This document shows, one piece after another, positions 481 through 31,481 of a stretch of DNA of 31,481 bases. The stretch lies in IMG/VR virus record IMGVR_UViG_3300028454_000103; one strand, given 5' to 3'. Under the pieces are notes generated by a model. It had not been told where the DNA came from. It saw nothing but the letters and a program-made list of their open reading frames with translations, and did not search any database. Position numbers and translations under genes: made by a program. Source of the stretch: a virus. Position 1 is the first letter of the stretch. Every line of letters starts with the position of its first letter.

Positions 481-1626
481 TTGAAAACCTATAAACACCT
501 TTTAGAGCAGATCGCAGACAAAGACAACGTAAGAAAAGCAATACTTAACGCAAGCAAGAGAAAAAGACATAGAAAAGACGTTAAACAAGTGATAGAGAAT
601 ATAGACTACCACGTAGAAGTAGTACACAACATGCTACTTACTGGCAGCTATAAGGCACACGTAGACGCGCCGTGTATTGTTAATGAGGGTACACACCACA
701 AAGTACGGCGCATACGTAAGCCACATTACAAGTACGACCAGATTATACACCACTGTATTATACAAGTACTGCAGCCGATATTAACCGCACCTATGTACGA
801 GTACAGCTGCGGCAGTATTCCAAAGAGGGGCGCACACTACGGCAAGCGGCGGCTAGAAAAGTGGATAAGGAACGACGTAAAAGGCACTAAGTATGTTTTT
901 AAAATGGATATTAAGCACTTTTACGAGAGTGTAGACCAAGACGTACTTAAGAGCATGCTAAAGGCTAAAATAAAAGACTGGCGGGCACTAGAGCTTATAT
1001 ACACAGTTATAGACAGCTGCGAAAAGGGCTTACCGTTAGGCAATTATACTAGCCAGTGGTTTGCAAACTTTATGCTAACGCCACTAGACCACTACATAAA
1101 AGAAGAGCTGCACGCTAAGTACTATATGCGATACATGGACGACATAGTAATACTGGGCGGCAATAAGAAAGAACTACACAAGATACACAAGGCTATAGAG
1201 AAGTACTTAAGCGAGCGCTTACACTTACGCATTAAGGAAAACTGGCAAGTATTTAGGCTTGTATATACCGACAGGAACGGACGGCAGCGCGGCAGATCAC
1301 TAGACTTTATGGGCTGGCAATTTTACCGCGAGAAAACCATACTACGCGAAAGCATTTACTTACGTATTGTACGCAAGGCAAGGCACGTAGGTAAGCACAC
1401 GACCATACAGGGCGCGCAAGGTATGATTAGCTACATGGGCTATATTAAGCATACGGACTGTTACGGCACTTACAGAGACTATATACGCCCGTATGTAAAT
1501 ATAGGAAAACTAAAGAAATTCACATCAAAAAGAGCCAAGAAAGGAGCGCTAAAAAATGGAGCGGAGAAAAACGACAGGAACGCAGACGACACAGCCAGCA
1601 GTACTAGACCTAGACAGCAGCCCTAG
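481..1626 (+). CDS. DGR-type reverse transcriptase
   Basis: 381 aa with a TTG start 13 nt after AGGAG. RT motifs IPKRG, FKMDIKHFY and YMDD (nt 1132-1143). LGNYTSQ (nt 1033-1053) matches the DGR-clade [I/L]GxxxSQ signature. Adjacent TR. Confidence 0.93.
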   Translation: MKTYKHLLEQIADKDNVRKAILNASKRKRHRKDVKQVIENIDYHVEVVHNMLLTGSYKAHVDAPCIVNEGTHHKVRRIRKPHYKYDQIIHHCIIQVLQPILTAPMYEYSCGSIPKRGAHYGKRRLEKWIRNDVKGTKYVFKMDIKHFYESVDQDVLKSMLKAKIKDWRALELIYTVIDSCEKGLPLGNYTSQWFANFMLTPLDHYIKEELHAKYYMRYMDDIVILGGNKKELHKIHKAIEKYLSERLHLRIKENWQVFRLVYTDRNGRQRGRSLDFMGWQFYREKTILRESIYLRIVRKARHVGKHTTIQGAQGMISYMGYIKHTDCYGTYRDYIRPYVNIGKLKKFTSKRAKKGALKNGAEKNDRNADDTASSTRPRQQP

Positions 1627-4594: not shown

Positions 4595-5650
4595 TTATGT
4601 TATTTTCTCTATTTCCTGCTTAAGCTCGTCTATTGTTCTATGCGTATACACCTTTTCTGTTACGTCGTCTATGGCGTGCCCTACAATGAGCTTAAGTATA
4701 TACTCGTCTACGCCGCTTTCTTTCGCTTTAGTTATGAACGTGTGGCGGGTATCGTGGGGCGTGTGCTGCATTTTAAAGCGTTTCATAATCTTTTTAAAGC
4801 GCCCGCGCCACTTATCGTACGTAAGCTCTTTACCAGTCTGGCTGCTTTCATCATAAAAGAGGGTATCGCAGCCAGCGGCAGCAGCTTTGTTATAGCAGCT
4901 TTCGACCAGATCATAAACGCGGCTATGTATCGGTACTACCCTATTGCGCCCTGCGTCAGTCTTAAGCCCGCCTATTATGGTACGCTCTTTTAAGTCTACG
5001 TCGCTTAGTTTAAGTATAGCTAGCTCTTGTGGACGAAAGCCGCTATATATTCCTATAAGCAGCATGTCTACAAACGGGTAAGCCAGATTACTAAACAGCG
5101 TTTCTATTTCATTATCAGAGAACGGCACACGCTTAATAACCTTTTCGCCCTTTTTAACGCTATTACACAGCGCCGCGTAGTCTTTGTCGCATATTTCATG
5201 CTTAAGAGCGTACTTGTACATGAGATTATAAAGGCTTTTCATGCGCTGCTTAGTGGGCTGCCCTGCTGCCGCGTCTTTAATAGTTTGTTCTAAGTGGTTT
5301 ACGCGTATATCTCTAAAGCGCATATCGTGCAGCGGGGCGCTATGGTTATATGCGCTTATCCATGTGCGGCGGGCGCTGGGTACTATAAGCTCGAAATGCT
5401 CTTTAGCCCACTTTTCGTACACTTCCTTAAATGTAATCGTATTTACTTGTATGTCGTAGGGGTTAGCGTTGAAGTCTGCCAGCGCTTGCAGTGCAGCAGC
5501 CTTAGTAGGATAATAGCCGACTGTTACGAAATGCTGCTTAGCTTTTCCGCTATCATCAATAGACCAGCCCGTAGTTTTACGGGCTATATATGGGTTACGT
5601 CGTTTGCCAGATAGTTTATAAACAGAGCCGTAGCCGTTTGGTAGTTTCAT
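4595..5650 (-). CDS. int: Tyrosine site-specific integrase
   Basis: 351 aa. C-terminal catalytic pattern HDTRHTF...GH...EKVYTHR. N-terminal arm-binding-like MKLPNGYGSVYKLSGKRRNPYIARK. Confidence 0.95.
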   Translation of the reverse strand: MKLPNGYGSVYKLSGKRRNPYIARKTTGWSIDDSGKAKQHFVTVGYYPTKAAALQALADFNANPYDIQVNTITFKEVYEKWAKEHFELIVPSARRTWISAYNHSAPLHDMRFRDIRVNHLEQTIKDAAAGQPTKQRMKSLYNLMYKYALKHEICDKDYAALCNSVKKGEKVIKRVPFSDNEIETLFSNLAYPFVDMLLIGIYSGFRPQELAILKLSDVDLKERTIIGGLKTDAGRNRVVPIHSRVYDLVESCYNKAAAAGCDTLFYDESSQTGKELTYDKWRGRFKKIMKRFKMQHTPHDTRHTFITKAKESGVDEYILKLIVGHAIDDVTEKVYTHRTIDELKQEIEKIT

Positions 5651-5904: not shown

Positions 5905-5927
5905 TAAGCGGCGCATTACGTGCCGCT
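5905..5927. terminator. Bidirectional terminator hairpin
   Basis: AAGCGGC / GCCGCTT stem. TTTTAATTTT follows on + and ATTTTTT follows on -. The repressor stop codon lies in the loop. Confidence 0.75.
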
Positions 5928-6278
5928 TTTAATTTTGTCTACAAAGTCTTTTACTAGCTGCCACTGCTGCGGGCTAAGCTGCCCTAGCGCTAAGAAAGTC
6001 TTTTTAACGAACTCGTCGCCGTCTGTAAATACAGCGCCCAGCAGTTTAGCTAGTTGCTCGTCGTCGGACACTTTAACGAACATATCGCCGCTGCCAGTCT
6101 CTAAGTATTCTTTATTAACGTTAAACTCCCTGCAGATACTAATAAGCATTTGAGGGGTAACGTTATTAACGCCGCTTTCTATTCTGGAAATAGTAGCGCG
6201 CGTAACACCTAAGCGAGCGCCGAAACTTTCCATAGACATATCTAACGCTATTCTAATTGCTTTAACTCTTTCTTTCAT
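5916..6278 (-). CDS. XRE/cI-type HTH repressor
   Basis: HTH_3 pattern MSMESFGARLGVTRATISRIESGVNNVTPQMLISICREFNV. Divergent from the early operon and adjacent to the integrase. Confidence 0.9.
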   Translation of the reverse strand: MKERVKAIRIALDMSMESFGARLGVTRATISRIESGVNNVTPQMLISICREFNVNKEYLETGSGDMFVKVSDDEQLAKLLGAVFTDGDEFVKKTFLALGQLSPQQWQLVKDFVDKIKSGT

Positions 6279-10489: not shown

Positions 10490-11110
10490 ATGGAAACACA
10501 AAACCTTATTACGCTGCTAGGAATTGCAGAAACAGACGCAGAGCCGCAAGAGTTTATTAACGGCACTAAAGTTAAGTGCTGGCATATCCTGCTTAGGACA
10601 GATAGACACAGCGGCACGCCAGATTATGAGCACATCTATTTTACAGAGAAAGCCAACAGCAACGACCTACTACCATTTATTAAGGGCATGCCCGTTATGG
10701 TTATAGGCTGCATGCAGACAGCTAAGGACTTTAAAACAAATAGAGTGCTTACTTTTGTGTCTGCAGATTACGTGGGCGTGGTTAAGGGGGATAACTACGA
10801 GCTACAGAACGACGTAAAGATAGTAGGCAAGCTGGGCAAGGGCATAGAGTACCGCGTAAAGAAGAGCGGCAAGCGCATTACTAACTTAATGCTGGAAGTG
10901 CCCAGCGTATTTAGAGCAAGCACTAACTGTTATATACCTTGTATCTGCTGGCAGTCACTAGCAGACAAAGCTAAAGACTGGCAAGTAGGCGACACAGTAG
11001 AGCTTACAGGCAGACTGCAGAGCCGCGACTTTATCAAAAAACAAGAGGGCGCAGAGGATATTAAGCGCACCAGCTACGAGGTATCTATATGCAATATGAC
11101 CAGACTATAA
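10490..11110 (+). CDS. OB-fold, SSB-like protein (non-canonical)
   Basis: The C-terminal half (ITNLMLEV...YIPCICWQSLADKAKDWQVGDTVELTGRLQSRDF...RTSYEVSI) follows the SSB OB-fold pattern but lacks an acidic tail. Confidence 0.5.
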   Translation: METQNLITLLGIAETDAEPQEFINGTKVKCWHILLRTDRHSGTPDYEHIYFTEKANSNDLLPFIKGMPVMVIGCMQTAKDFKTNRVLTFVSADYVGVVKGDNYELQNDVKIVGKLGKGIEYRVKKSGKRITNLMLEVPSVFRASTNCYIPCICWQSLADKAKDWQVGDTVELTGRLQSRDFIKKQEGAEDIKRTSYEVSICNMTRL

Positions 11111-12168
11111 CAGCACACGTAATTATATACGCAGAACTACTAGCGCCAGTAGGCGGCATAGAGACTTTTATATATAACCTATGCTGCGCACTCCATAAAG
11201 AGTACGACATAAAGGTTATATATAAGAACGGCGACGACAAGCAAATAGAGAGGCTGCAGGGCTTAGTAATGACATTGCAGTTAAGCAGCGTGCTAGAGGC
11301 TAGCTGCGACTTGCTTATTATGAATAGCATTTTTGATAAGCAGCCCGTACAGATCACAGCGGGGCGCGTACTGCAAATGGTACATAGCTGCAAGCTACGC
11401 GACTTTTACAAAATACCAGAGGGGCGCGACCAGTACATAGCAGTTAGTGAGGCGGCAAGGGTTACTTATCCTAAAGAGCTGCCAGACGACACGGGGGTAC
11501 TGCACAATATCGGAAACAGCAAAGAGCCTAAGCGCCTACTTAAGCTCTTAAGCGCTACCCGTCTTACAGAGGAAAAGGGCGGCGACAGGATAAAGCAACT
11601 AGCAGCGCAGCTTAACGCAGCGGACATACCTTTTATATGGCTTATATTTACGGCTAACGAGTTTAGACCAGTACCAAAAGGCGTAATACTTATGCAGCCA
11701 GACTTAGAGATTAAGCCATATATTGCAGCAGCAGACTACCTAGTACAACTAAGCGACAACGAGAGCTACTGCTACAGCATTGTAGAGGCATTTAGCTTAG
11801 GCACGCCAGTAATTACTACACCTATTAGCGTAGCAGACGAAATAGGCGTAGAGGACGGCGTTAACGGTTATGTCGTGCCGTTTGATATGCAGGGCATAGA
11901 CGTTAAAAAGATATACGAGCATATACCTACTGGCTTTACTTACAAGAGCGAGGACAAGGAAATATTAAAGCGCTGGCGGCAGATCATAGGCAAGCCAACT
12001 AGAAAGCCTACATATAAGCCAGCAGAAAAAATGCACGTAGAGGCGACGCAGGACTACTTAGACAATGCGCTAGGCAAGCTGGTAGTAAAAGGCGAGCGCC
12101 ACTACATGAGCATACAGAGAGCAAACAAGCTGCAGAGCATGGGCTTAGTAAAGCTGCTTGAAAATTAA
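11089..12168 (+). CDS. Glycosyltransferase family 1 (GT-B fold)
   Basis: LSATRLTEEKG...DYLVQLSDNESYCYSIVEAFSLGTPVITTP...GVNGYVV is a typical GT1 C-terminal domain with an EX7E-type motif. Confidence 0.85.
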   Translation: MQYDQTITAHVIIYAELLAPVGGIETFIYNLCCALHKEYDIKVIYKNGDDKQIERLQGLVMTLQLSSVLEASCDLLIMNSIFDKQPVQITAGRVLQMVHSCKLRDFYKIPEGRDQYIAVSEAARVTYPKELPDDTGVLHNIGNSKEPKRLLKLLSATRLTEEKGGDRIKQLAAQLNAADIPFIWLIFTANEFRPVPKGVILMQPDLEIKPYIAAADYLVQLSDNESYCYSIVEAFSLGTPVITTPISVADEIGVEDGVNGYVVPFDMQGIDVKKIYEHIPTGFTYKSEDKEILKRWRQIIGKPTRKPTYKPAEKMHVEATQDYLDNALGKLVVKGERHYMSIQRANKLQSMGLVKLLEN

Positions 12169-12259: not shown

Positions 12260-13018
12260 ATGCCTTATGTTAAGAGAACAACCCAAGCAGGAAAGACTAT
12301 AGAGGTAGAGTACTACTACACCAGCCAGTACAACCGTAAAGGGCAATGCAGAGCCGATAAAGTTAAGCCTACTAAAGAGGCACAGAAAAAAATTAACAAT
12401 AAGCAGGCAGAGAGAAAGCTAAGGCTACTGCTTAACGCTAACTTTGGCTATGGAGACTACCACGTAATACTTGACTACATCAGACAAGAGGGTAAGCCAG
12501 ATCGTACCAAAGAGGAAATGCAGACAGATATAGCTAAGTTTCTACGAGAGCTTAGAAAGCTATACAGGAAAGCAGGCAAAGAGCTTAAGTACGTGCATGT
12601 AATGGAGATAGGCAAAAAGGGAGCACGCCACCACCACTTAGTAATCAATAAGCTAGATACAGAGCTATTGCAGCAGGCGTGGTACAAAGCATACGAGGGG
12701 CACAACCGCGTTAAGGTATTCCCACTAGACGACACGGGCAACTATGCAGACCTAGCGGCATATCTGATTAAGTACACCAGCGAGCACCGCAGAGACGAGG
12801 GCGCACTTATGGGCAAGCGCTATAACTGCAGCCGCAACCTAGTACACCCAGAGCCTAAGTACGAGATATGCACAAGCAAGGCATACTTTAGAGTGCGCGA
12901 GAACATCAAAGCACCAAAGGGCTACTACATACCAGCAGACAGCATAGAGCAGGGCGTAACAAGCCCAGAGTATTACGGCTATGGCTGGTTTAGGTACACA
13001 ATGGTACGGCTAGAGTAA
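12260..13018 (+). CDS. HUH-superfamily rolling-circle replication initiator-like protein (two-tyrosine type)
   Basis: HHHLVIN (HUH motif). AAYLIKYTSEH has two Tyr separated by three residues, as in the phiX174 A / P2 A class. Confidence 0.6.
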   Translation: MPYVKRTTQAGKTIEVEYYYTSQYNRKGQCRADKVKPTKEAQKKINNKQAERKLRLLLNANFGYGDYHVILDYIRQEGKPDRTKEEMQTDIAKFLRELRKLYRKAGKELKYVHVMEIGKKGARHHHLVINKLDTELLQQAWYKAYEGHNRVKVFPLDDTGNYADLAAYLIKYTSEHRRDEGALMGKRYNCSRNLVHPEPKYEICTSKAYFRVRENIKAPKGYYIPADSIEQGVTSPEYYGYGWFRYTMVRLE

Positions 13019-14452: not shown

Positions 14453-14595
14453 ACACAACAGCAATAGCAATTACAGGCATTATCTGCTTAACGCTCTTAG
14501 CGTTTCAGATCATTAGCGAGGTAGGCAAGACAAAGAGACATACTACAGAGCTTGCAGCAGGACTTAGAGAGAAAGAAAGCGAGGGCAAGGCATGA
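14449..14595 (+). CDS. Small membrane protein (48 aa; below the ORF-track cutoff)
   Basis: ATGA-coupled at both ends. TM segment AIAITGIICLTLLAFQII. Confidence 0.5.
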   Translation: MNTTAIAITGIICLTLLAFQIISEVGKTKRHTTELAAGLREKESEGKA

Positions 14596-14999
14596 ACATA
14601 GCGGCGCTTGTAGGTAGGCTTACCAAAGAGCCAGTAATAACCTACACACAGGACAGCAGAGCAGTAGCACGCTTTACGCTGGCAGTAGACGACTACAAAG
14701 ACACAGACTTTATTAGCTGCGTTGCTTTCGATAAGCAGGCAGAGTGGTTAGAGAAGTGGGCAAGCAAAGGCACAAAGGTAGAGCTAACAGGAAAGATTAA
14801 GACAGGCAGCTACACAAACAGAGACGGCGCTAAGGTTTACTACACAGAGGTTAGAGCTAATAGCGTAGGCTTTGGAGAGAGCAAGACCGAGGCAGAGAAA
14901 AGAGGACAGACACAAGAGCAGCAGCCAGCGCAGCAGGACAACGGCAGCGGCTTTATGGATATACCAGACGGACTAGACGAAGAGCTACCGTTTAAGTGA
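14592..14999 (+). CDS. ssb: Single-stranded DNA-binding protein
   Basis: Canonical OB fold (NIAALVGRLTKEPV...FISCVAFDKQAE...GTKVELTGKIKTGSY), Gln/Gly-rich linker and acidic C-terminal tip DEELPF. Confidence 0.92.
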   Translation: MNIAALVGRLTKEPVITYTQDSRAVARFTLAVDDYKDTDFISCVAFDKQAEWLEKWASKGTKVELTGKIKTGSYTNRDGAKVYYTEVRANSVGFGESKTEAEKRGQTQEQQPAQQDNGSGFMDIPDGLDEELPFK

Positions 15000-24173: not shown

Positions 24174-26822
24174 ATGGCAGATACAGTAGAAAAACAAGTC
24201 AAAACTAAAATAAGTTTCGACGGCGAGGCAGACTACAAGAAAGCCGTAGCGGATATTAACAGCAACCTTAAAACGCTTAATAGCGAAATGAAGTTAGTAA
24301 CCGCAGAGTACAAGGCTAACGGGGCTAGCGTTGAGACTTTGAAAGCTAAACAAGAGACGCTGCAGAAAGTCTACGCAGAGCAGAAAGCAAAAGTAGAGGC
24401 TACAGAGAAAGCACTAGAGCGCTGCCGTAAGGAAACAGGCGAAAACAGCGACGCTAGCAAAAAGCTAGAGCAGCAGCTTAACTACCAGAAAGCAGCTTTA
24501 GTAGGCACAGAGGGCGAGCTTAAAAAGACAGCTACAGAGCTAGACAACGTAGAGAAAGAGGCAGACGGCGCAGGCAAAGAGCTTAAGAAGAGCGGCGACG
24601 CAGCCACAGACGGCGCTAACAAGTTTGAGGCAGCAGGCAACGCACTTAAGGCTACAGGCGCAGCCATTGCAGCAGCTACAGCAGCTATAGCGGCAGCAGC
24701 CGTGGCAGCTGGTAAGGCTATCTGGGATATGGCTAACGACGTAGCAAGCGCTGGCGACGAGATAGACAAGGAAAGCCAAAAACTGCAGATAAGCAGCGAC
24801 CTTTACCAAGAGCTTAGCTACGCATGCGAGCGCAGCGGGGCAAGCATTGACGACCTTAAAAAAGGCGTTAAGAACATTACCGACGAGCTAGGCAAAGCGC
24901 AGGACGGCACAGCGGGCGCGGGCGAGAAATTCGAAAAGCTAGGCGTATCGCTTAAGGACGCTAACGGCAACTTTAAGAGCACAGAGCAAGTGCTTATGGA
25001 AAGCATAGACGCACTGGCAGCTATGGACGACGAGACAGCCAGAAACGCTGCAGCTAACGAGATATTCGGAAAGAGCGCAGCAGAGCTTTTACCACTGCTT
25101 AACAGCGGCAGCGAGGGCATAAAGGAACTTATGCAAGAGGCAGACGCTTACGGCATGGTAATGAGCGCAGACGCAGTAGCAGCTAGCGCAGCTTTCGAGG
25201 ATAGCTTAAAAAGACTGCAGGGCACTTTTACAGGGCTTAAAAATAGTATCGTAAGCGAGCTTTTACCGTCTCTTACTACCCTTATGGACGGCTTTAGCGA
25301 CATGCTGGCAGGCAAGGACGGCGCAGCAGAAAAGGTTAAAGAGGGCGTTAAGGGCGTAGTAGACAGCATAACGGACACGTTACCGCAGCTAGTAAGCATG
25401 CTTTCTACTATCGTGCAGGCTATTGCAGACGTAGCGCCAGACATTATAGCAGCGCTTGCAGAGGGAATTATAAACGAGCTGCCAGCACTTGCAGAGAGTG
25501 CGCTACAGATCGTAGAAAAACTGGCAGACGCATTGCTTAAATTGCTGCCACAGTTACTAGAGGCTGGCGTACAGATCATATTACAGCTGGCGCAGGGTAT
25601 CGCGCAGGCATTGCCGCAGCTTATACCTACAGTAGTAGAGGTAGTACTAGAGCTGGTAGACACGCTTATAGACAACATACCGCTACTTATTGACGCAGCT
25701 TTGCAGCTGGTAACTGGTTTAGCAGAGGGAATTATAGCAGCTATACCCGTTATTATTGAAAAGCTACCAGAGCTTATTACTAGCATTATTAACGCGCTTA
25801 TCGAGGGCATACCGCTGCTTATACAGGGAGCTATACAACTCTTTATGGCGCTTGTGCAGGCAATACCCGTAATTATTGAGGCGTTAACAGCAGCTTTGCC
25901 GCAGATCATAGAGGCAATAGTTAACGGACTTATTAACGGCTTGCCTATGATTATTGAGGGCAGCATACAATTATTTATGGCGCTTTTAGAGGCTATACCA
26001 GTAATTGTAGAGGCGCTTATAAATGCTTTGCCGCAGATAGTGCAGGCTATCGCTACAGGACTTGCAGCAGCATTGCCAGAACTTGCAGCGTGGGGCGCTA
26101 ATATGCTTAACGGCTTTGTTACTATCTTTAGCAATGTGCTTAATAGTGTTATTCAGTGGGGCGGCAACATGCTTACACAGGCAGTAACCAGCATTACAGC
26201 TTTTGTTAACGGCATTATTAACACAGCCAAAGACATACCAGTAAAGCTATACAACGCTATCATAGGCGCAGTAGCACAAGTGCAGCAGTGGGGGCAGAGA
26301 GTGCTAGAGACTGCTAAAAACGGTATGAACATGGTTAAAAACGGCATACTTAATGTGTTTAGTAACATAGGCGAGAGCTTTAAGACCGTAGGCAGCAACA
26401 TTGTTAACGGTATCTGGAACGGCATAAGCGCTGGCTGGGACTGGCTAAAAGAAAAGGTTAGCAACATTGCCAGCAGCTTACTAGACGCAGCAAAGGACGC
26501 TCTAGGCATTGCCAGCCCGTCTAAGAAATTTAGAGACGAAGTGGGCGTATTTATGGCGCAGGGTATCGGCGTAGGCTTTGAAAACGAAATGCAAAGCGTA
26601 TCTAAGCAAATTGCTAACGCTATCCCTACAGACTTTGACGTAACGCCACATGTTACTACTGGCTTATCTGCTACAGACTATGCGAGCGAGAACGGGCAGC
26701 AGCCTACATTACTTAGCCGCGGCGTAACCGTAATACAGAACATTTACGCAAACACGACAGACTACGCTAAGCAGCAGAGAGAGGCAGAGAAAAACTTTAG
26801 AATGATCGCGAGGACGGTATAA
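24174..26822 (+). CDS. Tape measure protein
   Basis: 882 aa. Coiled-coil N-terminus, hydrophobic repeat core. Largest gene of the tail module. Confidence 0.93.
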   Translation: MADTVEKQVKTKISFDGEADYKKAVADINSNLKTLNSEMKLVTAEYKANGASVETLKAKQETLQKVYAEQKAKVEATEKALERCRKETGENSDASKKLEQQLNYQKAALVGTEGELKKTATELDNVEKEADGAGKELKKSGDAATDGANKFEAAGNALKATGAAIAAATAAIAAAAVAAGKAIWDMANDVASAGDEIDKESQKLQISSDLYQELSYACERSGASIDDLKKGVKNITDELGKAQDGTAGAGEKFEKLGVSLKDANGNFKSTEQVLMESIDALAAMDDETARNAAANEIFGKSAAELLPLLNSGSEGIKELMQEADAYGMVMSADAVAASAAFEDSLKRLQGTFTGLKNSIVSELLPSLTTLMDGFSDMLAGKDGAAEKVKEGVKGVVDSITDTLPQLVSMLSTIVQAIADVAPDIIAALAEGIINELPALAESALQIVEKLADALLKLLPQLLEAGVQIILQLAQGIAQALPQLIPTVVEVVLELVDTLIDNIPLLIDAALQLVTGLAEGIIAAIPVIIEKLPELITSIINALIEGIPLLIQGAIQLFMALVQAIPVIIEALTAALPQIIEAIVNGLINGLPMIIEGSIQLFMALLEAIPVIVEALINALPQIVQAIATGLAAALPELAAWGANMLNGFVTIFSNVLNSVIQWGGNMLTQAVTSITAFVNGIINTAKDIPVKLYNAIIGAVAQVQQWGQRVLETAKNGMNMVKNGILNVFSNIGESFKTVGSNIVNGIWNGISAGWDWLKEKVSNIASSLLDAAKDALGIASPSKKFRDEVGVFMAQGIGVGFENEMQSVSKQIANAIPTDFDVTPHVTTGLSATDYASENGQQPTLLSRGVTVIQNIYANTTDYAKQQREAEKNFRMIARTV
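25610..26065 (+). repeat. Three degenerate tandem repeats of about 132 nt (44 aa) inside the tape measure gene
   Basis: TTTATGG recurs at 25842 and 25974 (132-nt period). Peptide units are ..IPLLIQGAIQLFMALVQAIPVIIEAL..ALPQIIEAI.. and ..LPMIIEGSIQLFMALLEAIPVIVEAL..ALPQIVQAI.. Confidence 0.7.
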
Positions 26823-26824
26823 GC

Positions 26825-27718
26825 ATGGCAAAGTTTATAAACTATGAGCGGCTTATATATGAGAACGAAAACGGCGGCGCTATAGAGTTTAGCGTAGGCA
26901 GCGACTTTTACGTTAACGTCTCTAAGGACGTAAACGGCATAGCAGACATACGTAATACGCTGTATACGTCTAGCTCTATGGGGCAGCATGGCGAGACATT
27001 TATAAGCCAGAAAATTAACAGCAGAGACATAGACATAGCAGGCGTGATTAACAGAAAAGACAAAGACAACATGCTTACATTGCGCCGCGCTATGCAAAAG
27101 ATACTTAACCCAGAGCTTAAGGCTACGCTTACATACATTTACGGCGACTTTGTAAAGGTAATAGACGTAAAGGTAGACAACGCGCCAGTATTTAAGCGCG
27201 GGGCAGTGCTAGAGCAATTTACTGTACAGTTTACTTGCCCGTCTCCATTTTGGCGCGACCAGCAGGAAACTAAGAAAGATATAGCGAGCTGGATAGGTAG
27301 CTTTTACTTTCCGCTCGAAATACCTATTAACGAGGGCATACAGTTTGGTTACAGAGAGCCTAGCGTAATTGTAGACGTATACAACGAGGGCGACGTAGAC
27401 ACAGGCATGCGAGTAGCTTTTAAGGCTATCGGTACTGTAGTTAACCCGCTTTTGTTGAACATCAACACGGGCGAGTTTATACAAGTTAACCAGACGCTAG
27501 CAGCAGGCGACACGGTAACAGTTAACACAGAATACGGCAGCAAAGGGGCAACGCTTACAAGAGGCGGCGTAGATAGCGACTACTTTAGATACATAGACGT
27601 AGACAGCACATTTATGCAGCTTAAAATAGGCGACAACGTATTTAGATACAACGCAGCCAGCGGACTAGACCAGCTAGAAGTATCTATTTATTACAGCCCT
27701 AAGTATTTAGGAGTGTAA
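26825..27718 (+). CDS. Distal tail protein (Dit / siphovirus tail family)
   Basis: 297 aa, directly after the tape measure gene. Confidence 0.75.
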   Translation: MAKFINYERLIYENENGGAIEFSVGSDFYVNVSKDVNGIADIRNTLYTSSSMGQHGETFISQKINSRDIDIAGVINRKDKDNMLTLRRAMQKILNPELKATLTYIYGDFVKVIDVKVDNAPVFKRGAVLEQFTVQFTCPSPFWRDQQETKKDIASWIGSFYFPLEIPINEGIQFGYREPSVIVDVYNEGDVDTGMRVAFKAIGTVVNPLLLNINTGEFIQVNQTLAAGDTVTVNTEYGSKGATLTRGGVDSDYFRYIDVDSTFMQLKIGDNVFRYNAASGLDQLEVSIYYSPKYLGV

Positions 27719-27721
27719 CGC

Positions 27722-28885
27722 ATGGAGCTAAGAGTATTTACAAGAGACCTAGAGCCGTTAGGAATTGTAGACGAGCTTATAAGCACAATATGGCAGCCTA
27801 CATACTGGCAGCAGGGCAACTACGACGACTGCAAACTACTTGCGCCCGTAACAGACAATAACAACAACTTGCTTGTAAAGGGCAACATAGTAGTACTGCA
27901 TGGCGAGGCAGCAGAGTACACAGACGAGTACGGCGAGTGGCGGCGCGCTATGCAGATTACCTACAGGCACATAACAAAGGACGAAAACAACACAGAGCAA
28001 ATAGAGCTACAAGGCTGCTTTTTAAAGAAATGGCTTTCTAAGCGTGTGCTGCTTTCTAATCAGATCATAACGGGCACTAACCAGAGCATTATTAACGCGC
28101 TGGTAGTTAACAACGTAGGCGACAATGCCATAAGCGCCCGCCAGTTTGAAAACTTTATTATGTTGCAGCAGGACGACTTAGGCGGCAGCAGCGTAGACTA
28201 CACGACCAAGTACGGCGACGGACTAGCAGACGCGGTATACGAGAGAGCTTTAAGCGGCAAGCTGGGCTACGACATACTCGTAAACGAGCGCAATAGGTTA
28301 TACGGCTTTTGGCTGTATAAAGGCGACGACATGAGCAGCGGCAACAGCGAGGGTAACACGCCCTGCATATTTAGCCGCGACTTTGACAACGTAACAGAGC
28401 AGGACTACACAGAGAGCATAGAGAACATTAAAAACGTATGCTACTGCACCAGTGCTGCAGACGAGGACGGCACAATATATACGCAAGAGGTTTACGAGGA
28501 CGAGCAGGCGGGCATAGATCGCGACGAGTTTTACGTAGACATGACTAATATAAGCTGGACTGTTAAGGACGAGCAGGGGCAAGAGACAAGGCTAACACCA
28601 GAGCAGTACATAGAGCTTATGACTACAGAGGGCTACGCGCAGCTGGACGACTACGGCGAGGTTATGACGTTTGAAAGTACTATTAACACCAGTAAAAACT
28701 TGCAGTACAAGCGCGACTTTAACGTAGGCGACATAGTAACAACGATAGAGAAAAACTGGGGAATACGTATAGACGCTCGTATAACCAAAATAGGCGAGAC
28801 ATGGCAGAACGGTAAGCACACGCTAGAAGTTACTTTTGGCGAGAGCATGCCGACTTTGCTAGATAAAATTAAGAAAGTGAGGTAA
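27722..28885 (+). CDS. Tail-associated / baseplate hub protein (Sipho_Gp37-like)
   Basis: 387 aa. N-terminal MELRVFTRDLEPLGIVDELISTIWQPTYW pattern and position after Dit. Confidence 0.7.
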   Translation: MELRVFTRDLEPLGIVDELISTIWQPTYWQQGNYDDCKLLAPVTDNNNNLLVKGNIVVLHGEAAEYTDEYGEWRRAMQITYRHITKDENNTEQIELQGCFLKKWLSKRVLLSNQIITGTNQSIINALVVNNVGDNAISARQFENFIMLQQDDLGGSSVDYTTKYGDGLADAVYERALSGKLGYDILVNERNRLYGFWLYKGDDMSSGNSEGNTPCIFSRDFDNVTEQDYTESIENIKNVCYCTSAADEDGTIYTQEVYEDEQAGIDRDEFYVDMTNISWTVKDEQGQETRLTPEQYIELMTTEGYAQLDDYGEVMTFESTINTSKNLQYKRDFNVGDIVTTIEKNWGIRIDARITKIGETWQNGKHTLEVTFGESMPTLLDKIKKVR

Positions 28886-28889
28886 GGAC

Positions 28890-29876
28890 ATGGCACAAAA
28901 ATGCTTTCCGTTTAACAGCGACAGCGGCGACAGAGTTTATAAAGCAGAGGACTTTAGGGCATACTTTGCGCAGTTTATCGGTAACGGCGTATTTTATGCG
29001 AACTCTAACGCCCTTAAGGTAGTAGAAAGTAGCGGCATGAGCGTTAACGTAAATGCAGGCGCAGGCTGGATAGCTGGCGCAGGATATATTAACGACAGTG
29101 TGCTACAGCTTACGCTTGCAAATGCAGACGGCGCACTTAACCGTATAGACAGAGTAGTACTACGCTGCAGCTACACAGAGCGCGACGTATACGTAGTAGT
29201 AAAGCAGGGTAGCTTATCAGCACAGCCAACAGCACCAGCGCTTACACGTAACGCAGATAATTACGAGCTGGCACTTGCAGACATTTACGTAGCAGCAGGC
29301 GCTACAAGCATTACGCAGCAGGATATTACAGACCAGAGGCTTAATACAACGCTTTGCGGTATCGTTACGGGGCTTATTGAGCAGGCAGACACGACAGACA
29401 TTTTTAACCAGTTTGAGAGCTACTTAACACAGTTTAAGGCGCAGTACATTGCAGACATTGAAGAGTGGACGAGCGCGCAGGAAAGTGCTTTTACATCATG
29501 GAGCACACAGCAGCAGCAGGACTTTACAGACTGGGTAGACACAATTAGAGACATTTTGGACGAGGCGACAGCAGGACACTTACAGCTAGAAATAGAGGCA
29601 GCCGTTAAAGATACTTTCGAGCGTTTCTACGGCATGGCAGAGCAGCAGACAGACATTAAAACTAACGGGCAGATCGTAGTAACAAACGACGACGGCACGC
29701 TAACAGTTACTAAGGGCGTGGACGCAGAAACGGGCTACAAGACAATTACAGAGGTACTGGAAACAGCAGCCACAAGTAGCCAAGGCGCACACACTTACAC
29801 TAAGGTAACTACATTTATACCAGAGCCGACAGCCACAGTTAAAAAGCGCATTAGAGAGGAGTACAGCATAGCATGA
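28890..29876 (+). CDS. Tail fibre / baseplate structural protein
   Basis: 328 aa. ATGA-coupled to the DGR target gene. No enzymatic motif. Confidence 0.6.
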   Translation: MAQKCFPFNSDSGDRVYKAEDFRAYFAQFIGNGVFYANSNALKVVESSGMSVNVNAGAGWIAGAGYINDSVLQLTLANADGALNRIDRVVLRCSYTERDVYVVVKQGSLSAQPTAPALTRNADNYELALADIYVAAGATSITQQDITDQRLNTTLCGIVTGLIEQADTTDIFNQFESYLTQFKAQYIADIEEWTSAQESAFTSWSTQQQQDFTDWVDTIRDILDEATAGHLQLEIEAAVKDTFERFYGMAEQQTDIKTNGQIVVTNDDGTLTVTKGVDAETGYKTITEVLETAATSSQGAHTYTKVTTFIPEPTATVKKRIREEYSIA

Positions 29877-31444
29877 GTTACGCAGAGCAAAATTATACTA
29901 TCGACGAGTTAACAGAGGTTATTAACGCCGCTGCCACTGGCATACCACCCGCCAACATGCAGCAGTTTAGCGTATCTGCAGGCGACACTAAAGTAAGTAT
30001 CGTAGCTTTAGAGCCAGCAGACACAGAGGTAGACGGGCAGCTAGTAGCAAGCTGCAAGGGCTTTAAAATCGTTATGAACGACGACCACTACCCAGTAGAC
30101 GAGACAGACGGCACAGTAGTAGTAGACCACGTAGCAACTGGCAGCGCATTGCAGCAGGAAGTTACAGGACTTACAAACGACCAGCAGTACTACTTTGCAG
30201 CTTTCCCTTATACAGATCATGGCGTAGTTAACAGGGCAGCAGGCTTAAGAGTACTTGCGGGCAGCCACCCTAACAGACAGACAGCAACGCCTAAAGCATA
30301 CGTACTTTACGGCTTTAAGAGAACTAAGGCAGACAGCAACCCGCAGACAAGAGTAGTAGCTACAGACATGGCAGTAGGGCTTACACCCGCAAGCATGGAC
30401 GCAAGCACAGGCGAAATTAACTTAGGCGGCTGGGCTAATGCGTGGTTTGTAACAGGCAACAAGCCAGTAATGCTTAAGAGCGACGGCACTATAGACTACG
30501 AGCTTAACCCTAACGACTACACAAAGAAAGCAGACGGCACAGCCAGCGACGTAGCTAACACAAGTTACGACGGTAACGCTATGGCGCTCTTTCCTACATG
30601 CTGGGTTAAGCGCTGGCAAGACAGCACTTACGAGTATTTCCAAGTTTGCAACATCAAACTTAACGACGACTTTAAGGCGTACGCACACCAGCGCAGCGAC
30701 GGTACTATTATGGAGTGGTTTGCGCGCTCTATCTATGACGCTGGCGTAGTAAACAGCAAGGCACGTAGTATTAGCGGGCTTACACCTAACAACACGGTAG
30801 CGGGCGGCACACAGCTTAGCTATGCACAGGCTAACGGCAGCTTATGGGATAGCGACACATGGAGCAGGGTAGCTCTTATCTGGGATTTATTAACCCTTAT
30901 GTCGTTAGACGACGACGTACAGCACGCGTGGGGCTATGGCTGGTATACTGGCATGTCGCAGGCTAGCCACCTTAAGGCAGCAGGCTTAGGCAATACTAAG
31001 GGGCAATTCTGGGGCAAGAGAGAAAACAACACCGTTAAGGTATTCCACTTAGAGAATTTTTGGGGCAATATCTGGAAAATTGTACAGGGGCTTGTATATA
31101 ACACCACTGGCAAGTACGGCGTAAAAATGACTGCACCATACAACAACAGCGGCAGCGGCTACGTAGCTACGAGCTTTGGTTTATCTGGTACAAGTGGCGG
31201 CTATCAGTCAGCCCACAATATGAGCGAGCACGGCTGCTTACCTACAACAGCAAGCGGCAGCGAAACCACTTATATACCAGACGGCGCGTGGTGGAATACT
31301 ACGCAGCAGAACTTTGCCCGCTTTGGCTGCGCTGGTGGCTATGGCTTGCCCGTTGGGCGCGCTTTGTCTGTGGGCTCTGCGCTTTCGGACTCGCTTTGGC
31401 GTTTCGGGCTTGCCTTGACTTGCGAGCAACCTTTAGCGGCGTAA
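29873..31444 (+). CDS. DGR target protein: tail fibre / receptor-binding protein with a C-terminal C-type-lectin-like variable region
   Basis: 523 aa. The last 45 codons contain the VR. The TR-encoded version reads ..FGSNGNNGLPVGRALNVNNALSNSNWNYGLA.., a typical DGR CLec ligand-binding segment. Confidence 0.9.
   Translation: MSYAEQNYTIDELTEVINAAATGIPPANMQQFSVSAGDTKVSIVALEPADTEVDGQLVASCKGFKIVMNDDHYPVDETDGTVVVDHVATGSALQQEVTGLTNDQQYYFAAFPYTDHGVVNRAAGLRVLAGSHPNRQTATPKAYVLYGFKRTKADSNPQTRVVATDMAVGLTPASMDASTGEINLGGWANAWFVTGNKPVMLKSDGTIDYELNPNDYTKKADGTASDVANTSYDGNAMALFPTCWVKRWQDSTYEYFQVCNIKLNDDFKAYAHQRSDGTIMEWFARSIYDAGVVNSKARSISGLTPNNTVAGGTQLSYAQANGSLWDSDTWSRVALIWDLLTLMSLDDDVQHAWGYGWYTGMSQASHLKAAGLGNTKGQFWGKRENNTVKVFHLENFWGNIWKIVQGLVYNTTGKYGVKMTAPYNNSGSGYVATSFGLSGTSGGYQSAHNMSEHGCLPTTASGSETTYIPDGAWWNTTQQNFARFGCAGGYGLPVGRALSVGSALSDSLWRFGLALTCEQPLAA
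31311..31421 (+). repeat. DGR variable region (VR)
   Basis: Gap-free 111-bp match to TR 214-324 with 19 substitutions, all opposite TR adenines. Ends 23 nt before the stop codon. Confidence 0.93.
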
Positions 31445-31481
31445 GCCGCAGGGGGAACGGGGGAGCACTCCCCCCGCATAC
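31341..31481. repeat. Second copy of the 141-bp terminal overlap
   Basis: Identical to 1-141. Confidence 0.95.

Follow-up and report, generated by a model that had tools for sequence, protein, structure and literature searches.

An unannotated diversity-generating retroelement with a predicted lectin-fold tail protein target in a relative of the Butyrivibrio phages Arawn and Idris

Diversification of lectin-fold tail fibres by diversity-generating retroelements (DGRs) is a textbook phage strategy. Its prototype is the DGR of Bordetella phage BPP-1 (mtd-avd-TR-brt), the mechanism of which requires the accessory protein Avd. The present analysis concerns a DGR in the IMG/VR virus record IMGVR_UViG_3300028454_000103 (in the following the window, i.e., the whole analysed stretch of 31,481 nucleotides), which is an unannotated case of this well-known type of system and is likewise unrecognised in the sister phages Arawn and Idris. 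The reading put forward here with high confidence is that a functional, Avd-less DGR diversifies the ligand-binding face at the tip of a distal tail protein, a tip folded like a C-type lectin (CLec).

With BPP-1 the locus shares (i) adenine-specific homing from a template repeat (TR) to a variable repeat (VR) in a distal tail protein, at its C-terminal tip with a predicted CLec fold, (ii) an AAY-rich TR, (iii) a GC-rich block and a difference of the IMH/IMH* type (IMH, initiation of mutagenic homing) at the 3' end of the repeats, (iv) a GC-rich hairpin past the VR, and (v) a structured RNA between the TR and the reverse transcriptase (RT) gene. It differs from BPP-1 in being without avd, in a spacer RNA of the RT-4/RT-18 type instead of RT-10, and in two hairpins, of which one encloses the stop codon and neither has a GRNA loop; moreover, the target is extended by an FN3 domain and is more similar to TaqVP of Thermus aquaticus than to Mtd, and the host is Gram-positive.

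In its layout the locus corresponds to the 'Architecture A1' of Wu et al. 2018 (target-TR-RT; avd-less Lineage 3), with the TR directly before the RT gene, no accessory gene and a CLec-type target that ends in the VR. Architecture A1 is common in Firmicutes and phages, and the accessory-free 'Architecture A' accounts for 29 % of DGRs (26 % without and 74 % with avd); the same study pointed to the mechanism by which such DGRs manage in the absence of Avd as an unsolved issue (PMC5758913). The best structural match of the target protein is TaqVP from the T. aquaticus DGR (PDB 5vf4; ~385 aligned columns), which likewise carries its VR at the extreme C-terminus, with invariant last residues and an invariant Trp in the VR (PMC6328139). 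The two proteins share 14–15 % identity (TM 0.44–0.46), the TaqVP DGR has avd, and the window protein, which belongs to a siphovirus tail module, bears in addition an N-terminal helix and an FN3 domain. The closest relatives are the cultured rumen siphoviruses Butyrivibrio phage Arawn (NC_048848) and Idris (MN882554; genus Arawnvirus) as well as Closwp03, which agree with the window in ~96 % of nucleotides, in gene order and in the DGR, the TR being one base apart; Arawn and Idris differ from it in their VR sequences and in an extra TR adenine at codon 493.

Since the first 141 bases of the window equal the last 141 (1–141 = 31341–31481), it represents a complete circular contig with a unit of 31,340 bp, and the partial VR at 1–81 is the duplicate of the contig end and no second VR. 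The elements of the DGR are as follows.

29873–31444, + strand: DGR target gene encoding 523 aa, placed most distally in the tail module
31311–31421, + strand: VR, ungapped 111-bp match to the TR, codons 480–516 of the 523-codon target
31328–31404, + strand: mutagenised span of the VR, codons 486–511, 77 nt
31405–31421, + strand: 3' end of the VR, IMH-like, an adenine-free and GC-rich block CGGGCTTGCCT with TGACTT after it
31436–31449 (duplicate copy 96–109), + strand: hairpin 1, GCGGC-GTAA-GCCGC, 5-bp stem, target stop codon in the GTAA loop
31451–31476 (duplicate copy 111–136), + strand: G-run and hairpin 2 (hairpin 31458–31476), CGGGGG(A)-loop-(T)CCCCCG
214–324, + strand: TR, non-coding, with 20 of its 23 adenines inside the mutable span 231–307; last 6 nt (319–324) IMH*-like
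365–474, + strand: structured RNA in the TR-RT spacer (325–480), related to Rfam RT-4 (RF03025) and RT-18 (RF03021)
481–1626, + strand: DGR RT, 381 aa, TTG start, motifs LGNYTSQ and YMDD

Template-directed variation of the tail gene

Over their 111 bp the VR and TR of the window differ at 19 positions, and at every one of them (19/19) the TR carries an A; the chance that 19 randomly placed mismatches would all fall on TR adenines is p = 7.6e-18. In the frame of the target gene the TR translates into ..FGSNGNNGLPVGRALNVNNALSNSNWNYGLA* and the VR into ..FGCAGGYGLPVGRALSVGSALSDSLWRFGLAL. Both peptides, re-translated in the frame of 29873–31444, agree with those given by an earlier reading of the same letters (the original prediction), and the TR codons listed there were recovered as well, i.e., AAT at 234, 243, 270, 279, 297 and 303, AAC at 240, 276 and 291, AGC at 231, TAC at 306, TAG at 318 and ACT at 321. 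Its proposal of a DGR with an AAY-rich TR is confirmed by the adenine-only mismatches, the RT motifs and the layout retained in relatives.

The 13 codons taken as mutable in that prediction are reduced to 11, because the adenines of the TAG (A319) and ACT (A321) codons never vary in relatives: both are invariant in 24 close relatives and in ~60 related loci, and A214 at the 5' edge of the TR is likewise fixed. This leaves 11 mutable codons and ~6e11 peptides. The multiplication behind the earlier figure (15^9 x 4 x 4 x 3 x 4 = 7.4e12) holds as arithmetic, but the mutable set gives 15^9 x 4 x 4 = 6.2e11, i.e., ~12-fold fewer than the ~7e12 peptides claimed. It comprises 20 adenines in the codons for residues 486, 487, 489, 490, 499, 501, 502, 506, 508, 510 and 511, which are set amid an invariant scaffold (G488, G491, L492, V494-L498, V500, A503-S505, S507, W509, G512-L515).

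At the 3' end of the repeats the adenine-free GC-rich block of 11 nt is followed by an invariant difference at 31416/319, where the VR has T and the TR has A (TGACTT in the VR, AGACTT in TR 308–324), and a few further matching bases, after which the homology of VR and TR stops. This layout is kept in ~60 related loci, and residues 512–516 are invariant in the 24 relatives. By this arrangement A319 and A321 appear to lie in the IMH-like 3' end, in an IMH/IMH* configuration and not at a site of mutagenesis. In the target frame TR 318–320 forms the stop codon TAG where every VR has TTG (Leu515), and faithful copying of TR 319 would shorten the protein by 9 residues; that this base is never transferred or varied fits its membership in IMH*.

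With the target protein, 80 related IMG/VR loci were gathered. A VR/TR pair with adenine-only mismatches is present in ~58 of the 80, most of the others being truncated, and the order VR – 83–255 bp – TR – 99–201 bp – RT recurs in ~50 diverse loci. Between Arawn and Idris, the target gene upstream of the VR (0/1438) and the TR (0/111) show no difference and the VR 13/111; these sole differences within the target gene are, judged from their positions, DGR-made. Across six genomes of the Arawn group, 20 of the 24 VR columns that correspond to TR adenines vary, versus 2 of the 87 other columns; among relatives TRs differ at 0–2/111 and VRs at 11–18/111 positions (10–16 %). At the protein level, 24 relatives with at least 90 % identity have on average 6.5 distinct residues at TR-adenine codons versus 1.2 elsewhere.

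The two varying non-adenine columns are the only positions at which the TRs themselves differ (253 and 287). At 253 the window has C in both TR and VR, and the others have A in the TR and T in the VR; at 287 the loci L004 and L007 have C in the TR, and L007 has C also in the VR. The appearance of non-adenine TR changes in the cognate VRs indicates information flow from TR to VR. In the window TR, C at 253 makes codon 493 CCC, whereas Arawn, Idris, L004, L005 and L007 have CAC. With the adenine lost, codon 493 is no longer diversifiable in the window, where it is a fixed Pro (VR 31350); H, P, R and L are seen at this residue in relatives. The TR of Arawn and Idris has kept the adenine and thereby provides 12 mutable codons.

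The most recent changes are captured by two near-identical contigs, L084 and L085, which differ from the window at 4 of 7,572 positions (31328, 31331, 31332 and 31340), all of them TR-adenine sites of the VR. Since both carry the same C253 in the TR as the window, diversification went on after the change at 253. The ongoing hypervariation that the original prediction had expected is therefore seen directly among relatives, i.e., between Arawn and Idris, between the window and L085 and across the 24 proteins, and this comparative evidence argues for an active DGR in this lineage.

In the 3' part of the VR, the window has 14 adenine-site substitutions in common with L084/L085, and the four differing sites lie in the 5', IMH-distal part; similarly, the proteins P0131 and P0132 differ at residues 499 and 501 only. 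Partial tracts anchored at the 3' end should alter the IMH-proximal part, opposite to the mosaic seen. Such mosaic VRs could stem from patchy heteroduplex repair, or from recombination of VR variants across the adenine-free central block 31341–31366. The window VR as an assembly chimera was considered and rejected by reasoning, without a read-level check, since the 77-nt mutable span fits into single 141-mers of the k141 assembly. The contig break itself falls exactly inside the VR (31340/31341), beside the four sites differing from the sister contig L085, which suggests that the assembler split the contig at a population bubble.

Reverse transcriptase, spacer RNA and downstream hairpins

In the mechanism proposed for this DGR, the TR (214–324) would be transcribed together with the structured, RT-4-like spacer RNA (325–480), which would position and prime the RT. 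The RT (481–1626) would then copy the TR into cDNA from the TR 3' end, with misincorporation opposite the 20 adenines of 231–307, and the cDNA would replace the VR (31311–31421) in the target gene. Directionality would arise from the GC-rich block and the fixed T/A difference (IMH versus IMH*), and the conserved hairpins just downstream may aid target recognition; the outcome would be up to ~6e11 peptide variants at 11 positions amid the invariant scaffold. The priming role of the spacer RNA and the role of the hairpins are suggested by analogy with described DGRs.

The RT matches RVT_1 (8.5e-14) and PHROG 1423 (9e-108). Its best sequence match in the PDB is a 328-aa protein (8ub7, E 8.9e-29), ahead of group II RTs (1.3e-17). 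The PDB label of 8ub7 reads 'Reverse transcriptase' only, and we take it, from its sequence, to be the bRT of phage BPP-1; a literature search on the code 8ub7 found nothing. The DGR-type motif is LGNYTSQ in the window RT and IGSLTSQ in 8ub7, both proteins have YMDD, and [LIV]GxxxSQ (in place of QGxxxSP) as well as YxDD are conserved in the RTs of relatives. Matches to group II, retron, Drt and AbiA/Abi models are all far under the curated cutoffs (Drt3a 84.6 bits versus 200). By these motifs and matches the RT is of the DGR type. Residues ~331–381 (window 1470–1626) form a basic, low-complexity C-terminal tail (pI ~10) that extends beyond the 328-aa 8ub7 and is longer in relatives of ~440 aa.

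The gap between VR and TR measures 132 bp and leaves no room for avd. Two candidates for an Avd function were rejected: the open reading frame (ORF) at 1556–1903, the product of which is acidic, matches only a PHROG of unknown function and is not Avd-like, and the C-terminal extension of the RT as a fused Avd domain, this being the basic low-complexity tail.

The spacer between TR and RT gene matches the Rfam motif RT-4 over the full model length (49.1 bits, E 1.9e-7), in the same place directly upstream of the RT gene as the Rfam motifs RT-4 and RT-18. At the same position in relatives the gathering scores are reached, by RT-4 in L019 (74.4; L019 5823–5920) and by RT-18 in seven loci (51–63 bits, including L038 5813–5890). 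In a 26-sequence alignment 11 of the 16 pairs of the consensus structure show compensatory changes. The spacer contains the invariant blocks TCCTACACC, AGTGRAAAT and AGTA; invariant blocks of the spacer RNA further include CCUACACC and AGUGGAAAU, and the blocks common to the window spacer and the Rfam motifs are UACACCGC, a UUGAAAU loop and AGUGGAAAU. Single-sequence folding of the VR–TR gap and of TR plus spacer gave nothing better than shuffled sequences, the structures being seen by comparative analysis only. In the study of Weinberg et al. 2017, only RT-10 (the BPP-1 spacer) was tied to a DGR, RT-4 and RT-18 had no assigned function, and the other RT motifs were speculated to be DGR parts (PMC5737381). 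The present comparison of sequences supports this speculation for RT-4 and RT-18; the two orphan Rfam motifs would thereby gain a context as the TR-RT spacer of an Avd-less DGR family.

Two hairpins follow the VR. Of 51 unique related loci, 41 possess hairpin 1, in versions with 15 different stem sequences (e.g., GCGTC/GACGC in Arawn), and its loop always holds the stop codon; across these loci the stems display clear covariation. This hairpin is distinct from the GC-rich one that resembles the BPP-1 cruciform. The latter, hairpin 2, has a G/C stem of 6–7 bp, in its tighter reading a 4-nt loop (GCAC), and starts 36 nt past the VR end; it is present in 49 of the 51 loci in 33 distinct, covarying versions, usually with a 4-nt loop, and folds as DNA. 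The target hairpin/cruciform of BPP-1 has a GC-rich stem of 7–10 bp and a 4-nt GRNA loop at 4–34 bp from the VR (PMC3240598), and by analogy hairpin 2 is a candidate DGR target-recognition hairpin/cruciform. The hairpins were extracted by script, because MAFFT placed the small one wrongly when aligning the sequences past the VR. A role of hairpin 2 as intrinsic terminator is unsupported, with no T-run following it and no terminator called at either hairpin in a promoter/terminator scan, which returned nothing above shuffle expectation. The C-run of hairpin 2 (31470–31475) counts six C in the window and five in the closest relatives (L001, L004, L005 and L007); this could be a homopolymer length change or a sequencing/assembly artefact.

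The diversified tail protein and competing explanations

The target protein consists of an N-terminal helix (residues 3–19), an FN3-like domain (residues ~31–113) and a TaqVP-like CLec module (residues ~134–523, core ~300–523). AlphaFold models of the full-length protein (pLDDT 92.9, pTM 0.85) and of residues 134–523 (pLDDT 95.7, pTM 0.94) were compared with the PDB by Foldseek. With the full-length model TaqVP (5vf4) ranked first (E 4.5e-9), followed by FN3 domains on residues ~31–113. With residues 134–523 the top nine hits were three chains of TaqVP 5vf4 (best E 7.5e-10, prob 1.0), Mtd (1yu0 and 1yu3), PvdO and three chains of formylglycine-generating enzyme (FGE). In the predicted structure, the C-terminal module is thus confirmed as a CLec/FGE-type fold. 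The CLec-type C-terminus of the original prediction is hence borne out; the fold stands, and its extent has to be revised, from residues 380–523 only to ~134–523 with the core at ~300–523.

The assignment as last gene of the tail, made in the same prediction, is supported by the gene order (tape measure, Dit, Tal-like, unknown, target), by a match to the PHROG 5302 'tail protein' (9e-67) and by BFVD, in which the target matches gut-phage proteins named 'tail collar fiber protein' or 'tail fiber', including those of crAss-like phages (E 8e-46, TM up to 0.88; the names are annotations). Within the VR, the variable sites accept 6–11 chemically diverse residues, are spaced i, i+2 at 499/501 and 506/508/510 and flank the invariant Trp509, as they do in TaqVP, Mtd and TvpA, proteins with their variable residues exposed to solvent. 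The invariant last VR residues of TaqVP were assigned to the IMH (PMC6328139).

Several observations weigh against the reading of an Avd-less DGR acting on a lectin-fold tip. As to the protein, the Foldseek TM values to solved CLec proteins are modest (0.31–0.46; top nine hits 0.25–0.46), and Pfam shows no lectin, FGE or Mtd_N domain in the target, NCBIfam and PADLOC being empty as well. For FGE-sulfatase (PF03781) and DUF1566, the models to which the original prediction had pointed, neither Pfam nor NCBIfam gave a match at E<0.01, and a phmmer search of the target against the PDB yielded nothing meaningful; the only PDB sequence match of the family profile is TaqVP (E 0.08), for which another stretch, not significant by itself, aligns the C-terminal variable regions of both proteins. 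Surface exposure of the variable residues is suggested by the residues they tolerate and by TaqVP and Mtd, and binding of a Butyrivibrio receptor by the varied surface, together with the host retargeting expected in the original prediction, is likewise proposed by analogy.

As to the machinery, the spacer RNA of the window stays under the Rfam gathering scores (RT-4 49.1 versus 73.5; RT-18 34.6 versus 41.3); since relatives pass them, the window copy is regarded as a divergent relative of RT-4/RT-18. The GCAC loop of hairpin 2 does not fit GRNA, and its distance of 36 nt from the VR is just beyond the 4–34 bp range. The promoter scan revealed no promoter-like site for a TR RNA, and the mosaic VR differences are not predicted by a single full-length homing event, which would re-randomise all sites. 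Finally, no Avd-like Pfam domain was found in essentially all ORFs of at least 45 aa in the genome, a host-encoded Avd not having been searched for. Together with the lack of room in the VR–TR gap, this agrees with the accessory-free Architecture A already documented and suggests that the DGR is independent of Avd.

Going one step further, one may tentatively consider it quite possible that the Arawnvirus DGR is Avd-free in that the RT-4/RT-18-type RNA, the basic tail of the RT and the two-hairpin signal replace Avd-dependent priming and targeting, with VR variants being reshuffled patchwise as well as in full length. If so, the plaque-forming phages Arawn and Idris on their culturable host would be the first tractable model for Avd-independent mutagenic retrohoming.

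A different and rather unlikely explanation accepts the DGR as real and active and holds that the diversified protein is not the primary receptor binder: it would bind other ligands, in secondary or reversible adhesion to variable surface glycans or to rumen plant or mucus material, such that VR changes leave the host range as it is. That Arawn and Idris were both isolated on B. fibrisolvens DSM 3071 with unlike VRs (13/111 nt) speaks against host retargeting and for this explanation; receptor binding could reside in the upstream Tal-like protein (27722–28885) or the 328-aa protein (28890–29876), and FN3 domains such as that of the target are often linked to accessory adhesion. It is opposed by the position of the target as most distal gene of the tail module, by its structural likeness to Mtd, the receptor-binding protein of BPP-1, and to many annotated tail fibres, and by the very high VR turnover in otherwise identical genomes, which suggests selection through infection. 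Should the receptor-binding role preferred here apply, host-range predictions for this phage group would have to allow for a fast-changing receptor-binding tip, in rumen ecology as well as in phage therapy.

It is quite improbable that the DGR is inactive in this genome and the VR a frozen record of past events. One assembled sequence cannot show activity, the window TR has lost one adenine (C253), and no TR promoter was detected; yet spacer RNA, hairpins and an RT complete with catalytic motifs are all intact, and L084/L085, identical over 7.5 kb and sharing C253, differ at four TR-adenine sites of the VR. Scarcely credible, lastly, is an abortive-infection or 'prophage immunity' RT next to an incidental repeat, as the published annotation of Arawn and Idris has it (PMC7372960) and as the weak, sub-threshold likeness to Drt3a, retron and AbiA models might suggest, given defence-RT matches far under cutoff (Drt3a 84.6 versus 200), 8ub7 as the closest solved protein, the [LIV]GxxxSQ motif, a neighbouring TR that differs from the tail-gene VR at adenines alone in a linkage kept in ~50 loci, and VRs that turn over between near-identical phages.

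Phage genome and public annotations

The gene content of the window is that of a temperate siphovirus, with replication genes, terminase, portal, protease and capsid genes in addition to the following.

4595–5650, − strand: integrase
5916–6278, − strand: helix-turn-helix repressor
24174–26822: tape measure, tail module
26825–27718: Dit, tail module
27722–28885: Tal-like protein (Sipho_Gp37), tail module
28890–29876: uncharacterised 328-aa protein between the Tal-like gene and the target gene
1556–1903: ORF after the RT, acidic 115-aa product, overlapping the RT 3' end; PHROG 20201, function not known
1907–2050: XkdX gene after ORF 1556–1903, followed by holin-like genes and an endolysin gene

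The TR-RT cassette is thus placed between the tail fibre gene and XkdX-type genes, and XkdX-type genes usually come after tail fibres.

For the authors of the Arawn/Idris paper the RT possibly serves prophage immunity, and a DGR is mentioned nowhere (PMC7372960); a literature search found no paper describing a DGR in this phage group. The prophage-immunity reading of this RT is very probably wrong. The records NC_048848.1, MN882550.2, MN882554.2 and PQ069210.1 (L001–L003) have no TR, VR or DGR feature annotated; the gene that separates the target from the Tal-like gene is labelled 'head protein' in RefSeq, the target itself is a 'Capsid protein' in UniProt, and in the Closwp03 record the RT is annotated from a later start and 150 nt short. 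The public annotations of the Arawn group therefore look wrong or incomplete, and the present assignment corrects the record for cultured rumen phages; it also points to a culturable phage–host pair with an accessory-free DGR as an experimental model.

Further genes of the window encode two SSB-domain proteins, a group-1 glycosyltransferase and a Rep ORF2/G2P-type replication protein (10490–11110, 14592–14999, 11089–12168 and 12260–13018). The phage glycosyltransferase might act on glycans of the host surface and would then bear on the availability of receptors. L084 (JGI 3300023707, contig of 60,256 nt) holds a near-identical copy of the 31.3-kb phage; it may represent a concatemer, or else a prophage integrated between host flanks, and might show the host and the att site.

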